From Flavobacteriales bacterium (GTDB lineage: Bacteria; Bacteroidota; Bacteroidia; Flavobacteriales; UBA7312): a stretch of DNA of 64,000 nucleotides. This document shows positions 3,280 to 27,637 of the stretch, in pieces (positions within the stretch are counted from its first letter, which is position 1; each line of letters begins with the position of its first letter). The position numbers and the translations under genes were made by a program. Where the stretch lies: contig JADHMQ010000010.1 in assembly GCA_016779935.1 (NCBI GenBank), forward strand, positions 3,572 to 67,571, read 5' to 3'. Under the pieces are notes generated by a model that had not been told where the DNA came from, searched no databases, and worked only from the letters and a program-made list of their open reading frames with translations.

Positions 3280-3907
3280 ATATAATAATTCTATGTATTC
3301 CTTTATCATAAGTCTGTTCGGTAAGCTTCACTAACTTATGGAAAGTGAACTTATCAGCAACAAAATCTTTGTCTGAAACATCTACAATAAGAACAGGATA
3401 ATCTGTTTGTTTTTTAAAAAAATCAAAATACTTATTCTGAATATCTAACAGATAAGTATCGGTAATATCTTGCTCATAATCTCGGCCTCTTTTAAGGATA
3501 TTTTGTTGCAATCGATTTACATTAGAGTGCAAATACAAAATTAAATCTGGCTTTGGTAAGTTGTTAAGGGCAATATCAGAAAGTCTATTGAACAATAATA
3601 ACTCGTCATCGGTTAAGTTATTCTTTGCGAACAACTTTGATTTAACGAAAAAATAATCTGAAACCAAGCCTTTTGAAAATAAGTTCTGGTCTCTAAGCTC
3701 ACCAAGTTGACGATAGCGTTCAGCCATAAAAAACAACTCTAATGAAAAGGCATACCTTTCAGGGTTTTTATAAAATTTAGGAAGAAATGGATTATCAGCA
3801 AACTCTTCTAAAATAAGCTTATAGCCCAACTTTTCAGACAGCATATTTGAAAAGGTAGTTTTCCCAACCCCAATATTTCCTTCTATAGCTATGAATTGAT
3901 AACTCAT
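3278..3907 (-). CDS. Deoxynucleoside kinase (dNK family), paralog 1
   Basis: P-loop IAIEGNIGVGKTT at the N-terminus, an ERY motif (FMAERYRQ) and RGRDYEQ, with the 209-aa length typical of dAK/dGK-type kinases. Its start overlaps the folK stop by 4 nt. Confidence 0.88.
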   Translation of the reverse strand: MSYQFIAIEGNIGVGKTTFSNMLSEKLGYKLILEEFADNPFLPKFYKNPERYAFSLELFFMAERYRQLGELRDQNLFSKGLVSDYFFVKSKLFAKNNLTDDELLLFNRLSDIALNNLPKPDLILYLHSNVNRLQQNILKRGRDYEQDITDTYLLDIQNKYFDFFKKQTDYPVLIVDVSDKDFVADKFTFHKLVKLTEQTYDKGIHRIII

Positions 3908-23547: not shown

Positions 23548-24744
23548 ATGATTGTATACAAGCCAACTTGTCGGCAATTTATATTTGTCCTTTTTTTCTT
23601 TTTTGCTGTTCATTGTATGGGTCAGAATGGCAGCCAATTGATACGAATTCATACCGTCAGTAATATTGCTTCGATGAACGCCATAAGCACTCCTATGGAA
23701 GGAAATCTAGTATATGTTCAAACTGTTGATGCTATATACTACTACGATGGCACCAATTGGTTGGCTTTGTCTTCTAGCTCCTCAGCAAGTACAATCAGTT
23801 GGAAATTAGCAGGGAACCAAGCTTCTTCCACTGATGTTATAGGAACAACCAATAACAGTGACCTAAATATTCGTACCAATAACATACAAAGAATGACAGT
23901 AAAAAATGATGGGAAAGTGGGTATTGACATCACCAACCCCAGTGGTGCTTTTCAAATAGGAGAAACTCAAGGAGGTGGGTATGTTTTTCTAACGGCAAGT
24001 ACAACAAGTGCCGAAAATGAAATAATAGATAATGATTTAAGCACTACTGGTTGGATAAATATTGGAAATGAAGTCCTGTACAATGGGTCTTCACAAATTC
24101 TCATCGGAGCATATAATTTAATTAAATCAACCCAAACTACATTATCATCTCCGTCCTCGCTAGTTTTTCAAGCTAGGTCAAACGATAATAGCCCTTGGGT
24201 TACTTTAGATACACAAACAAGCATTAACTGGTCAGCAACAACAATGTTTCAAGTAATGTTTACTACTATTACCCAAACTTATGAAGATTACAGAATAGTT
24301 TTTAATAGTGATGGATATTTGGTAGAGGCGCGTATGTTTGAAAGACAACCACCAACAGAAGAAACTAAATTTATTGTTTTAGAAAATGGTAATGTTGGTG
24401 TCGGCACAGACAATCCAACTCAAAAACTACATGTAAGTGGAAACATTTTAGCTAGCGGAACTATAGCCCCTGATTACGTTTTTGAAAGTTACTTTGAAGG
24501 GGAAAGCCAATTAAATCCTGAGTACCAGTTTACTGAACTAGAAAAAACCATTGAATTTGCCAAGAAACACCACCACTTGCCGAATATTCCTTCTGCAAAA
24601 GAGGTAAAAGAACAAGGCGGTATAGTACTCAATAAAGCAGTTGAACAAAATTTAGAGAAAATCGAGGAATTATACATTCATACAAGTAATTTAAATAAAG
24701 AATTAACGGAAATGAGAAAAACAATTTTAGAGTATTTGGAATAA
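23548..24744 (+). CDS. Secreted tail-fibre-like protein, paralog 1 (conserved N module, divergent galactose-binding-like central domain, conserved C module)
   Basis: Signal peptide, then QLIRIHTVSN...GNLVYVQ..DAIYYYDGTNW, W.LAGN...IGTTNNSDLNIRTNNIQRMTVKNDGKVGI. The C module is KLHVSGNILASGTIAPDYVFESYFEG...EKTIEFAKKHHHLPNIPSAKEV...LEKIEEL. It is paralogous to the next two ORFs. Confidence 0.75.
   Translation: MIVYKPTCRQFIFVLFFFFAVHCMGQNGSQLIRIHTVSNIASMNAISTPMEGNLVYVQTVDAIYYYDGTNWLALSSSSSASTISWKLAGNQASSTDVIGTTNNSDLNIRTNNIQRMTVKNDGKVGIDITNPSGAFQIGETQGGGYVFLTASTTSAENEIIDNDLSTTGWINIGNEVLYNGSSQILIGAYNLIKSTQTTLSSPSSLVFQARSNDNSPWVTLDTQTSINWSATTMFQVMFTTITQTYEDYRIVFNSDGYLVEARMFERQPPTEETKFIVLENGNVGVGTDNPTQKLHVSGNILASGTIAPDYVFESYFEGESQLNPEYQFTELEKTIEFAKKHHHLPNIPSAKEVKEQGGIVLNKAVEQNLEKIEELYIHTSNLNKELTEMRKTILEYLE
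24451..24672 (+). repeat. 222-bp conserved 3' block of the tail-fibre-like paralogs, copy 1
   Basis: My manual alignment to copy 3 finds 13 mismatches in 222 nt with no gaps. It contains a 65-bp stretch (24529-24593) identical in all three copies. Confidence 0.85.
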
Positions 24745-24756
24745 CAAACTAAAAAC

Positions 24757-26052
24757 ATGAAAAAACTATATTGCATCCTAAATCTACTCATTTACAGCTT
24801 GGCGTACAGTCAGACTAGCGACCAGTTAATTCGTATTCAGTCAGTCAGTAACCTTTCTACAATGAATGCCATAACTAATCCATTAGAAGGAAATCTTATT
24901 TATGTAGAAAGCACAAGCCTCGTATATTATTATAATGGTGCCAATTGGGTTTCAATAGCATCTACAAATTCAAATTCAACAAATGGTTGGCAACTATTAG
25001 GGAATACAGCTACTTCCTCTGATTTTATTGGAACTACCAACAATACTGATTTTAATATTCGCACCAATAATACTCAGAGAATGACAGTAAAAAATGATGG
25101 AAAAGTAGGTATTGGAACGAATAATCCAACTGGCATTTTTGAAGTATCTACTCAAGGGACAAATCAAAACTTAATACCTCCAATGAGTAGTAATACGGAC
25201 AACAACATAAGTGTTTCAGTAAATTTTCATTCTGGACATACTAGCTCTTTAACTAATTCAGCCTTTCACATCTTTGACAATAATAATAACACATCAATTA
25301 CTGCTAGTTCTACCGCACCAACATCGAGTACAATCACCAATCCAGCTTTTTGGGTAATGGTTGATTTTGGGAACATTAATTACGTAGTTAATTCCTATGA
25401 TTTTAGGGTTGATCCTAATGAATCTCAAAATACCCCCAATAAATTCAAACTAGAAGGCTCCAATGATGGTACAAACTGGACATCTTTGGAAAATTTACAC
25501 ACTATTAATGAATCTGCTTATCAATGGAACCCTCTACAATCTTTTAACATTACTAATACCACTTCTTATAGATATTACAAATTTCATGTGTATGAGATAA
25601 ATTCTAACGTTACAATAGGTGATGCAGTAGTTGGAGAATGTAAATTGATTGAACTAAATCTTTATGGCGTAATCTCAAGTTTTTCTGTAGCTACAAATGG
25701 GAATGTAGGAGTGGGTACCGTAAACCCCAGCGAAAAACTACAGGTATTAGGTAATATTCTGGCTTCAGGAACTATTACACCTGATTATGTTTTTGAACAT
25801 TATTTTGAAGGAAAAAGTCAACTAAAGCCAGAATACCAATTTACTGAACTAGAAAAAACCATTGAATTTGCCAAGAAACACCACCACTTGCCGAATATTC
25901 CTTCTGCAAAAGAGGTAAAAAAACAAGGTGGCATACTGCTAAATAAAGCTGTTGAACAAAATTTAGAGAAAATCGAGGAATTACACCTACATATCTATCA
26001 AACCTTAAAAGAGATTGAAGAAATTGAAAAATTAATACTAAAACTTGATTAA
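24757..26052 (+). CDS. Secreted tail-fibre-like protein, paralog 2 (central F5/8 type C / discoidin-like domain)
   Basis: It has the same N and C modules as paralog 1. The central FWVMVDFGNINYVVNSYDFRV...FKLEGSNDGTNWTSLEN...YRYYKFHV reads as a discoidin/galactose-binding-like domain. Confidence 0.78.
   Translation: MKKLYCILNLLIYSLAYSQTSDQLIRIQSVSNLSTMNAITNPLEGNLIYVESTSLVYYYNGANWVSIASTNSNSTNGWQLLGNTATSSDFIGTTNNTDFNIRTNNTQRMTVKNDGKVGIGTNNPTGIFEVSTQGTNQNLIPPMSSNTDNNISVSVNFHSGHTSSLTNSAFHIFDNNNNTSITASSTAPTSSTITNPAFWVMVDFGNINYVVNSYDFRVDPNESQNTPNKFKLEGSNDGTNWTSLENLHTINESAYQWNPLQSFNITNTTSYRYYKFHVYEINSNVTIGDAVVGECKLIELNLYGVISSFSVATNGNVGVGTVNPSEKLQVLGNILASGTITPDYVFEHYFEGKSQLKPEYQFTELEKTIEFAKKHHHLPNIPSAKEVKKQGGILLNKAVEQNLEKIEELHLHIYQTLKEIEEIEKLILKLD
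25762..25983 (+). repeat. 222-bp conserved 3' block, copy 2
   Basis: The 65-bp identical core is at 25840-25904. The last 144 nt differ from copy 3 at 5 positions, and the 5' third is more diverged. Confidence 0.8.
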
Positions 26053-26837
26053 TGAGAAAATATATACTGCTAACTCTTTTTTCAATATTTAATTACACAT
26101 CCATCTGCCAAAACTTTAATCAGTTGATTTGTGTAAATATCGTTAGTAATGAAACTACAATGAATGCTATTAGTAGTCCACAAGAGGGAAATCTTATATA
26201 CGTTCAAAGCACAGATGCTATTTACTATTATGACGGAACAAATTGGATGCTTTTTTCCAATGGTAATTCATCAAGCTCTAATGACTGGAATTTAGCGGGA
26301 AACTCAATAGCTTCCTCCAACTTTTTAGGAACCTCCAACAACACTGACTTAGATATTCGCACCAATAACACACAAAGAATGACAGTAAAAAATGATGGGA
26401 AAGTGGGCGTCAACACTCTAAGTCCAACTGGTGCTTTTCAAGTTGGAAATAATCAATTTATTATAGCTAATAACGGTAATGCAGGCATTGGCATAAACCC
26501 TAATGAAAAACTTCATGTTAGCGGAAATATTTTGGCTAGCGGAACAATTACCCCTGATTACGTTTTTGAAAGTTACTTTGAAGGGAAAAGCCAACTAAAA
26601 CCTGAGTACCAGTTTACTGAACTAGAAAAAACCATTGAATTTGCCAAGAAACACCACCACTTGCCGAATATTCCTTCAGCAAAAGAGGTAAAAAAACAAG
26701 GCGGCATACTACTAAACAAAGCGGTTGAACAAAATTTAGAGAAAATCGAGGAATTATTCTTACATCTATACGAACTTAATCTTAAAAAAGATAGCCTAAA
26801 GGAAGTATTCAATAAGAAGATTGCCGGAATCAAATAG
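26052..26837 (+). CDS. Secreted tail-fibre-like protein, paralog 3 (N and C modules only, no central domain)
   Basis: In this 261-aa protein the N module joins the C module after only about 10 residues. Its start shares TAATG with the paralog 2 stop. Confidence 0.75.
   Translation: MRKYILLTLFSIFNYTSICQNFNQLICVNIVSNETTMNAISSPQEGNLIYVQSTDAIYYYDGTNWMLFSNGNSSSSNDWNLAGNSIASSNFLGTSNNTDLDIRTNNTQRMTVKNDGKVGVNTLSPTGAFQVGNNQFIIANNGNAGIGINPNEKLHVSGNILASGTITPDYVFESYFEGKSQLKPEYQFTELEKTIEFAKKHHHLPNIPSAKEVKKQGGILLNKAVEQNLEKIEELFLHLYELNLKKDSLKEVFNKKIAGIK
26535..26756 (+). repeat. 222-bp conserved 3' block, copy 3
   Basis: The 65-bp identical core is at 26613-26677. See copies 1 and 2. Confidence 0.85.
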
Positions 26838-27237
26838 ATTTGTAAACTCTAGTAGCGGTTTCACCAATATTAAAATCTTGCTTAACAAACTGTCCAATAG
26901 AAGTTTGTTTGCACCAAGATTCAATAGAGTATCCTTTACCAGAGTAATTGTCTTTTACCCATTGCATGCGCGTGTCCCATAGCAATTTATAAATGCCTCT
27001 TCCTCTGAATTCTGGAGAAACAAAAGCATCCTGAAACTTAATAACTTTATCTTTTTGAAAAGTCAAATTGACCCAACCAACGGCTTGGTCATCTGTCGTC
27101 ATGGCTACCCAACCCAAAAAGTCCCTTGAATGAGTATGTGCTACCACACGTATACTAAATCTGGACCTCTTCATAAACAATTGCTTTCTCTTTAATTTAG
27201 ATTTAATCATCATAATAACAGCATAATAACACCACAA
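26830..27237 (-). CDS. GNAT-family N-acetyltransferase (small)
   Basis: FVSPEFRGRGIYKLLW is the acetyl-CoA-binding R-x-x-G-x-G motif. The start is uncertain (ATG 27237 or ATG 27174, MKRSRFSIRVV). Its 3' end overlaps the convergent paralog 3 by 8 nt. Confidence 0.65.
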   Translation of the reverse strand: MWCYYAVIMMIKSKLKRKQLFMKRSRFSIRVVAHTHSRDFLGWVAMTTDDQAVGWVNLTFQKDKVIKFQDAFVSPEFRGRGIYKLLWDTRMQWVKDNYSGKGYSIESWCKQTSIGQFVKQDFNIGETATRVYKSI

Positions 27238-27312
27238 TAATAACTTAAAAACTTAATCCTAAAATTATTGAAAACCCAATTTTGGGTTAATAAATTCAAA
27301 ATTTTTAGCCCG

Positions 27313-27320
27313 CAAAAATA
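27313..27320 (-). promoter_or_regulatory. -7 box TATTTTTG upstream of the GNAT gene
   Basis: Exact TAnnTTTG on the minus strand. The AACCC-AATTTT-GGGTT hairpin (27273-27288) would lie in the resulting 5' leader. Confidence 0.35.
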
Positions 27321-27588
27321 ATTTTTTTTACAATACAGTTACATGAAAAAATGACGCCTTAAAAATAAACTTATGTTTTCTTAAAATTACTAGAGTAAGA
27401 TTGTAAAATCACTTAAAAAGAATCTGCAAAAAAAAGACAGTTTAAAAGACGTCTTACAACAAAAAATTGATCTATTTGAATTAATGCAAACACACATATT
27501 TATATTTTCACTTCAATTTGGACTAAAACAAGCTGGCATAGCTCCAAGTGATTGAGCAAAATAAATCGAAAGAAAAAAAGATTAGCAT

Positions 27589-27613
27589 AAAAAAACCTCC
27601 TGTTGTCAGGAGG
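27589..27613 (-). terminator. Intrinsic terminator of pepF
   Basis: CCTCCTG-TTGT-CAGGAGG, a 7-bp stem followed in minus sense by a T7 run. Confidence 0.85.
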
Positions 27614-27637
27614 TTTTGTATTATTTAGAAACAATAA

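Follow-up and report, generated by a model that had tools for sequence, protein, structure and literature searches.

Organization of the three genes

The subject of this analysis is a group of three tandem genes in a Flavobacteriales bacterium, found in a stretch of 64,000 nucleotides (nt) of contig JADHMQ010000010.1 that we refer to as the window. We named the genes and their products P1, P2, and P3, for paralogs 1, 2, and 3 in 5'→3' order. All three lie on the forward strand, with open reading frames (ORFs) of 398 amino acids (aa) for P1 (23548–24744), 431 aa for P2 (24757–26052), and 261 aa for P3 (26052–26837), the last being the minimal form. P1 and P2 are separated by 12 nt, and P2 and P3 overlap by 1 nt (TAATG), as a first-pass annotation of this DNA had described. 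That annotation also proposed a common architecture in which a conserved N module, a conserved C module, and a divergent coiled-coil tail follow one another, and a three-way alignment together with the repeats in the DNA confirmed it. We consider the trio to be an operon-like array encoding paralogous proteins that are exported by Sec and have the build of short phage tail fibers, a reading to which we give a probability of roughly 0.55.

The proteins can be divided into corresponding parts. In P1, a signal peptide (aa 1–25) precedes a small PTL_trimer-type domain (30–71), a beta-helix turn with capping loop 1 (85–137), a divergent CBM32/discoidin domain (within 138–279), capping loop 2 (280–307), the core of the C module (308–375), and a coiled-coil tail (376–398). 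The same order is seen in P2, with a signal peptide (1–18), PTL_trimer-type domain (23–64), shaft and capping loop 1 (78–130), F5/8 type C (discoidin) domain (within 131–313), capping loop 2 (314–341), C core (342–409), and tail (410–431). P3 has a signal peptide (1–19), PTL_trimer-type domain (24–65), shaft and capping loop 1 (79–131), a 9-residue junction, capping loop 2 (141–167), C core (168–235), and tail (236–261). Protein alignment and codon-level comparison found 65–68 of 109 residues identical between paralog pairs in the N module (aa 26–135 of P3) and 63–68 of 69 in the C core, as well as 3–8 of the last ~22 residues that form the tails. Signal sequences are variable in the alignment. 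The DNA contains three families of direct repeats (299, 168, and 102 nt, with three copies per family) whose layout mirrors that of the protein modules, and a tblastn-type search of the 64-kb window found no further copies of the N or C module.

Similarity to trimeric fibers

The first-pass annotation compared these proteins to tail fibers, and this character was supported by sequence and fold matches of the shaft, by fold matches to viral fibers, and by the occurrence of the C module in viral contigs (discussed below). The shaft motif GT.NN.D...TNNT.RMT....G.VG..T..PT gave weak but specific sequence matches in the PDB to fibers of Bdellovibrio bacteriovorus. With phmmer these were Bd3182 (8ojn, E 2e-4), Bd2133 (8ond, E 8e-4), and also Bd2439 (8ol4), and P3 aligned with Bd3182 and Bd2133 over TNNTxRMTxxxxGxVGxxTxxPT (TNNTQRMTVKNDGKVGxxTxxPTG). 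When the AlphaFold2 model of P3 (m175d00f41296, mean predicted local distance difference test score, pLDDT, of 83.9) was compared to the PDB with Foldseek, the Bdellovibrio proteins Bd2133, Bd3182, Bd1334, and Bd2439 ranked first (8ond, E 7e-5). The best fold matches among viral models were phage fiber proteins of the S74/ICA type, aligned over most of the chain, and PHROGs returned weak tail-fiber matches for the trio proteins.

The Bdellovibrio fibers belong to a superfamily of mosaic adhesive trimers (MAT), whose members have a Sec signal, a conserved N domain, and an intertwined trimeric beta-helix with capping loops (PMC10769870). They end in an S74 chaperone or another tip, and their display on the cell surface was demonstrated experimentally (Caulton et al. 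2024, PMC10769870). The capping loop is a feature of trimeric fibers with the consensus V-G-G/N-pi-X-X-P-X-X-X-L (PMC10769870), and the pattern in the trio is G-x-VGIGT-x-x-P-x-x-K-L-x-V. Like the MAT fibers, the trio proteins have a Sec signal, are phage-fiber-like, and share the beta-helix shaft unit and the capping-loop motif in both sequence and fold; both groups are mosaics in which the ends are constant and the binding domains vary, and both have several paralogs. However, there are clear differences. MAT proteins are ~600–1,100 aa long, while the trio proteins have 240–410 aa in the mature form. The MAT N domain, which comes directly after the signal peptide, is beta-rich and ~130 aa, whereas that of the trio is ~45 aa and of the PTL_trimer type, which makes the identity of the two N domains look unlikely. 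The C-terminus of a MAT is taken up by S74 or by the variable adhesive domain, but in the trio both are absent from that position, the lectin domain is internal, and the chain ends in a constant, helical, non-S74 module. A homolog search with a 44-aa fragment of Bd3182 produced no candidates.

In the P3 model, the stretch QLIRI...EGNLIYV...YYYDG.NW, which makes up the first ~45 mature residues of the trio proteins, is folded as a beta-alpha-beta-beta-beta unit. Several weak but convergent matches suggest that this is a trimerization-type domain resembling PTL_trimer, DUF2793, and the collagen trimerizers. Precomputed matches to PTL_trimer (PF26696) are marked weak on all three proteins of a near-identical locus (L005) and carry no such mark on the homologs P0014 and P0044. 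Among 18 members, the N segments had sub-threshold DUF2793 matches in 12 (best E 8e-5) and Pfam Collagen_trimer matches in 3. Foldseek also matched the P3 model to the trimerization domains of collagen XV/XVIII (TMt 0.6–0.68), a similarity that we would map to the N domain. We found no literature on PTL_trimer/PF26696.

The motif also occurs in a different setting. Beside P0044, in a Chryseobacterium locus (L009, 8324–12210), there is a 1,112-aa protein with thrombospondin-type-3-like Asp-rich repeats and a PTL_trimer-like motif at its end, and adjoining it is a 172-aa protein made of two such motifs. Since these neighboring proteins carry the motif, the small N domain appears to be in wide use outside the C-module family.

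A lectin-fold domain between the capping loops

The segment between the N and C modules is ~142 aa long in P1, ~183 aa in P2, and 9 residues in P3, so that the earlier observation of essentially no center in P3 holds. For P2, aa 167–280 scored just below the cut-offs for two discoidin families, with 26.9 bits against 27.8 for PF22633 and 25.6 bits against 28.2 for PF00754. Its near-identical database twin (P0003) is named a discoidin domain-containing protein by NCBI and carries PF00754/PF22633, as do many other homologs in precomputed annotation; a look-up of the exact P2 sequence returned no record. The center of P1 had no Pfam match. The fold comparison for the central domain covers the P1 model only (AlphaFold2, mbec7e1fd7c45), in which pLDDT is 81–95 over aa 165–265. 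The high-confidence part of this model is an all-beta sandwich at about aa 160–270 (24025–24357, forward strand). Foldseek against the PDB placed CBM32 domains at the top (4zy9, 4a42, 7d2a, and 2v72; TMt 0.65–0.68, probability 1.00), which come from a chitosanase, CpGH89, AlyQ, and NanJ.

The P1 and P2 centers are 21% identical (E 7e-4), and when homolog centers were compared all-against-all by BLAST, both belonged to a single connected cluster of 20, in which some members are annotated with PF00754. Because of the Pfam scores of P2, the fold matches of P1, and this BLAST link between them, we conclude that the two centers are divergent discoidin/CBM32 lectin-fold domains of the same kind. The first-pass annotation had described the inserts as unrelated sequences that are swapped between paralogs. 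This description was refuted: a single lectin fold has diverged or is absent, and no exchange for an unrelated domain was seen. While the P1 and P2 centers share the fold of CBM32/F5/8 type C modules, and P2 has the near-threshold sequence match, in the trio the domain is inserted into the shaft of a fiber rather than appended to a glycoside hydrolase.

A conserved C module and the S74 question

In the P3 model, the C module consists of three short helices followed by a 40-residue helix, with pLDDT above 90. It had no match in Pfam-A, NCBIfam, or PADLOC, and a profile of it compared to the PDB returned coiled-coil noise only. Weak PHROGs matches, to phrog_3660, were obtained for 3 of 43 members. 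We searched the profile, built from 43 modules, against 1.84 billion representatives of 50% identity clusters and recovered 36,143 proteins at E ≤ 1e-3, of which 33,159 also passed E ≤ 1e-10. The best 150 of the 36,143 were inspected by motif and architecture. In nearly all of these, DYVF and HLP are located close to the C-terminus and Gln comes after the signal peptide, while the N-terminal parts are highly varied. Most named members are Bacteroidota (Flavobacteriales, Chryseobacterium, Aequorivita, Aquimarina, Salegentibacter, and Croceivirga), joined by one Ignavibacteria metagenome-assembled genome (MAG), and they are labeled as hypothetical, tail fiber protein, cell wall anchor protein, LamG, LRR, or discoidin, or in UniRef as Peptidase S74 domain-containing. 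We found the C module fused to LamG, LRR, YadA-head, and multi-repeat fiber parts, and the smallest members, at ~155 aa, consist of a signal peptide, one capping loop, and the C module. The module is not strictly C-terminal, since some members (P0121–P0133) carry two or three internal copies of a unit made of capping loop, C module, and coiled coil in one polypeptide. Such units follow LamG or another domain, and one protein of this kind is the 677-aa P0122 of Salegentibacter salinarum. We found no paper that describes the C-module family.

The location of this module is reminiscent of the S74 domain, and the first-pass annotation raised the prospect of an intramolecular-chaperone-like element. 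If the C module were a cryptic S74-type chaperone that is cleaved after folding, the fiber would end after capping loop 2, and the lectin would be near its free tip. The position is indeed that of S74, ~25 residues after the last capping loop. The UniRef label on some members and the S74/ICA fiber proteins found as best viral fold matches point in the same direction, and hhalign gave 94–96% probability when full modules were compared. However, the idea failed every sequence test that we applied. The SDxxxK motif was present in 0 of 246 family sequences scanned, with Pro, Ala, or Trp at the place of the Ser. PF13884 had no match at E ≤ 10 for 43 C modules and none at E ≤ 1 for full proteins, and the C-module profile found no S74 chain in the PDB.

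To compare profiles by hhalign we used a control set of real S74 domains from PDB matches together with 114 PF13884-annotated proteins. The probability was 1% against 5 S74 sequences and 34% against the 114, the latter aligned on the tails only. The high value above came from extended alignments that included the tails, and when both alignments were cut just after the start of the EKIEEL/IKEL helix, it fell to 0.5%, compared with 1.2% for a reversed-sequence control. The signal is lost once the tails are removed, so we attribute it to the coiled coil alone, which leaves the location behind the last capping loop and the whole-chain fold matches to viral S74/ICA proteins on the side of S74. The presence of two or three C modules in a single polypeptide is also a poor fit to a terminal cap that cleaves itself. 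Consequently, a cryptic S74 chaperone seems unlikely to us, and the sequence comparisons suggest that the C module occupies the place of S74 with neither membership in nor homology to that family being supported. The trio thus resembles S74-bearing phage fibers and tailspikes (such as endosialidase K1F and T5 pb1; PF13884) in having a triple-beta-helix-type shaft with capping loops and, at the C-terminus, a helical domain terminating in a coiled coil, but it differs from them in the lack of the Ser-Lys dyad, of a PF13884 match, and of profile similarity outside the coiled coil, and in having signal peptides.

A catalytic role for Asp, His, and Ser residues of the C module was also entertained as a separate candidate. 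It was dropped, as versions from viral contigs have PDM or PST instead of PSA and thereby lose the Ser of this motif.

Variation of the array among relatives

The array was compared across related genomes. In a sister MAG (L001, PKDP01000082), collinearity with the window extends over clpP, tig, and the N module of P1 up to window position 23970 and resumes at 27559, the N part of P1 being joined directly to a C part. Because collinearity breaks and resumes at these positions, the sister genome has a single short gene, frameshifted over at least three frames, and is without ~3.6 kb that include the GNAT ORF downstream of P3. In another lineage, arrays of this kind occupy a second slot, between an MGMT-type gene and trmB. 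The proteins there are 261, 425, and 265 aa in L002 and 267, 266, and 274 aa in L006, while L003, L004, and one 156-kb JGI contig have a single protein of 421 aa. Copy number therefore ranges from 1 to 3 over two genomic slots. The first-pass annotation had suggested that strains be compared for copy number and for exchange of the central domain; the former does vary, as does the presence of the domain, but its replacement by an unrelated domain was not seen.

The C core is a 204-nt block on the forward strand in each gene, at 24469–24672 in P1 (part of the homogenized block), 25780–25983 in P2 (repeat family D1), and 26553–26756 in P3. Nucleotide identity among the window paralogs is 91–95% in the C core, 67–71% in the N module, and ~50% in the tails. 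The same core is 61–75% identical between paralogs in L002 and L006. On the level of sequence, this points to recent gene conversion of the C core in the window genome, which would explain part of the striking C-module conservation that the first-pass annotation had remarked upon.

Connection to phages

A scan of IMG/VR with the C module returned 22 loci of two kinds. The first kind comprises signal-less proteins of 680–1,800 aa with a variant C module at the C-terminus (L010, L015, L021–L023, L025, and L027). In L021, a baseplate-wedge gene (phrog_219, E 4.5e-26) immediately precedes the C-module gene, and in L010 the neighbors of the C-module gene match phage families. These proteins of uncultured marine viruses have the same C-terminal module as the trio (PDYVF...HLP...LLEKIEEL and a coiled coil), with 31–36% identity to the window module, but they are longer, lack the signal peptide and PTL_trimer, and have a variant middle motif (HLPNVPDMDDM..W). 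They are likely to be tail-fiber genes of uncultured phages. The second kind, about half of the loci, consists of cellular-type members with signal peptides (L011, L014, L017, L019, L020, L026, and L028–L031). Most of these are in viral regions predicted within isolate genomes and may be prophage-borne or mis-predicted. A tblastn search of 50,697 deposited phage records gave no match for P3 or for either type of C module.

Given the viral versions of the module, the weak PHROGs matches to tail fibers, and the decaying copy in the sister genome, the trio could be viewed as what is left of a prophage, tailocin, or contractile injection system, having no cellular role of its own. We regard this as highly improbable. 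The signal peptides of the trio follow the rule of the host (see below), while the viral-contig versions have none. There are no phage genes within ~6 kb on either side; instead, clpX, clpP, and tig are located upstream on the opposite strand, a GNAT-like ORF and an M3 peptidase gene are downstream, and holA is also in the flanks, so that tig and the GNAT gene are indeed the immediate neighbors named in the first-pass annotation. Furthermore, such arrays are present in two unrelated housekeeping slots, and the deposited phage genomes contain nothing that matches.

Export and location

P1, P2, and P3 each begin with a hydrophobic stretch that is followed by a small residue and then Gln. A hydrophobic core was seen in 182 of the 228 family proteins beginning with Met, and in 176 of these 182 Ala, Ser, Gly, or Cys followed by Gln comes directly after it. 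A signal-peptidase-I Q-rule has been described for Bacteroidetes (PMC5837995, PMC10653852). The N-termini of the trio and of the family appear to fit this rule, which supports export and is in agreement with the Sec signal peptides that the first-pass annotation assigned to each protein. For P1, the NCBI start is Met24, which makes the protein 23 residues shorter and removes the signal sequence. As the ortholog in the sister MAG has Ile at this position yet conserves the hydrophobic stretch, the long form that starts at 23548 is the better call. The Bacteroidetes -7 motif TAnnTTTG was not found upstream of P1; its sole exact copy near the P1 start is at 23580–23587 (forward strand), within the signal-peptide codons and 5' of Met24.

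There was no Pfam or NCBIfam match to a C-terminal sorting domain (type A or B) of the type IX secretion system (T9SS) or to any other secretion signal, as the first-pass annotation had noted, and the C-terminus is helical rather than a beta-sandwich. No lipobox is present in the trio, and no Pfam match to a YadA-type beta-barrel anchor was obtained. With respect to trimeric autotransporter adhesins, one family member (P0072) has YadA head repeats yet ends in the same helical C module. Since no outer-membrane translocation signal is visible, surface display is assumed.

Because no route across the outer membrane can be seen, the main alternative is a periplasmic role. The proteins would then cross only the inner membrane and act as an envelope scaffold, for example as trimeric coiled-coil struts with a lectin that binds peptidoglycan or another envelope glycan. 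A Sec signal without a T9SS domain, lipobox, or outer-membrane anchor is what such a role predicts; the neighbors are housekeeping genes, and none of the contexts seen includes a partner dedicated to export; and the extreme conservation of the C module could reflect binding to one invariant cellular partner. However, the MAT fibers of Bdellovibrio, which are the closest characterized relatives, also have only a Sec signal and are nonetheless on the cell surface (PMC10769870). Differences in copy number, lectin presence, and pseudogenization between close relatives fit accessory, outward-facing proteins better, and an external role is also suggested by the presence of this module in proteins that phages encode. 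We therefore consider a periplasmic function doubtful, if more plausible than either the S74 or the prophage-remnant explanation.

Proposed model and its weak points

We favor the view that the trio encodes Sec-exported, probably homotrimeric, fiber-like glycan-binding proteins, with the same slight balance of probability as given above for the array. The mature chain would begin at the Gln exposed by signal peptidase I. A trimerization-type domain of ~45 residues comes first, then a Ser/Asn-rich linker and a short beta-helix shaft between two capping loops, and the chain ends with the helical C module of ~70 residues running into the coiled coil. In P1 and P2, the discoidin/CBM32 lectin is inserted between the two capping loops, while P3 is a bare shaft. 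Three identical chains may zip together by means of their N domains, an intertwined shaft, and the coiled coil at the C-terminus, so that each fiber would present three lectin domains that could bind a glycan of particles, algae, or other cells. In this arrangement, the C module would serve as a C-terminal registration or assembly element. It would sit where phage and Bdellovibrio fibers carry S74, and without the Ser-Lys dyad it is probably not cut off in the same manner. The paralog-specific tails may prevent mixed trimers among co-expressed paralogs. The array itself would evolve by duplication, deletion, and gene conversion between its repeated modules. Of these elements, the homotrimer, the assembly role of the C module and tails, glycan binding, the outward-facing adhesive function, and a role as adhesins or receptor-binding proteins are what we infer from the data above.

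Several observations weigh against this model. The structure models are monomers, and the trimer is putative. P2 falls just under the Pfam cut-offs for discoidin families, and sugar binding is likewise putative. The lectin is inside the chain and not at the tip, unlike in classical receptor-binding proteins. There is no visible signal for translocation across the outer membrane, be it a T9SS domain, a lipobox, or a beta-barrel anchor. The link to phages is drawn solely from metagenomic viral contigs, and the deposited records gave no tblastn match. Finally, Asp, Tyr, His, Pro, and Lys residues of the C module are near-invariant over thousands of clusters, which exceeds what a simple zipper would need. 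Such strict conservation may indicate a hidden partner-binding or catalytic role that our model does not explain.

Some of this was known before. The trio proteins are present in databases as hypothetical or discoidin-domain proteins, and phage-fiber-like bacterial adhesins have been known since the MAT work. The trio differs in its compact size, the internal insertion of the lectin, the PTL_trimer-type N domain, and most of all in a constant C module that is not S74. This module is part of a very large family that none of the domain libraries tried covers and that uncultured phages share. In the literature that we searched, the only experimentally characterized phage-fiber-like adhesins that bacteria make for their own use are those of Bdellovibrio, and judging by this locus, a compact version in which a lectin is inserted into the shaft exists in marine Flavobacteriales. 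As a broader and more tentative proposal, PDYVF...HLPxxPSA...LEKIEEL may define a distinct domain for fiber assembly or anchoring, a non-cleaving replacement of S74 common to Bacteroidota cells and their phages. The tens of thousands of clusters that carry it could then be Sec-exported trimeric adhesins of phage origin in Bacteroidota, and the trio a small, fast-evolving lectin-fiber locus that is the Bacteroidota counterpart of the Bdellovibrio MAT repertoire. We think that this is possible but would not yet bet on it.

Understanding what the C module does, whether trimer registration, anchoring, or something else, would provide an annotation for very many proteins of this family of ~36,000 clusters that at present go by hypothetical, "tail fiber", or "cell wall anchor". 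The answer would also be relevant to the attachment of Bacteroidota to polysaccharide particles and to the way in which they place proteins outside the cell when neither T9SS nor a lipid anchor is involved. P3, with 261 aa, and the ~155-aa members are small enough for structure determination to be practical.

Neighborhood and minor features

Over six genomic contexts, no conserved neighbor gene was found to recur. PADLOC had no antiphage match for P1, P2, P3, or the GNAT ORF. There were no convincing inverted repeats flanking the trio genes that would indicate an invertible or phase-variable switch, sigma-70 and terminator signals were at the level of shuffled sequence, and the whole 64 kb contained no tRNA, tmRNA, or Rfam family at the gathering threshold.

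The GNAT-like ORF (26830–27237, reverse strand) encodes 135 aa from a TTG start, or 114 aa in the NCBI annotation, and has a weak PF00583 match. It is convergent with P3 and overlaps the 3' end of P3 by 8 nt. Because it is missing from the otherwise collinear sister MAG, this ORF belongs to the variable segment. A 15-nt direct repeat (26773–26787 and 27250–27264) brackets it.

The intergenic DNA beyond the GNAT ORF (27238–27637) contains what may be a relic of a further tail. At 27430–27468 (forward strand), the translation QKKDSLKDVLQQKIDL resembles the tail of the homolog P0036 (QKKDSLKTVLQQKINQ), although the evidence is weak (tblastn E 0.51), and this short open stretch, when read as KKNLQKKDSLKDVLQQKIDL, is close to the tails of both P3 and P0036. 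The relic may be the 3' end of another paralog or a duplication that dates from the arrival of the GNAT segment. The interval from the GNAT ORF to the M3 peptidase gene also contains a perfect 11-bp stem with a 4-nt loop (27592–27617) that can be read on both strands and is conserved in the sister MAG (3556–3584); it looks like a bidirectional terminator.

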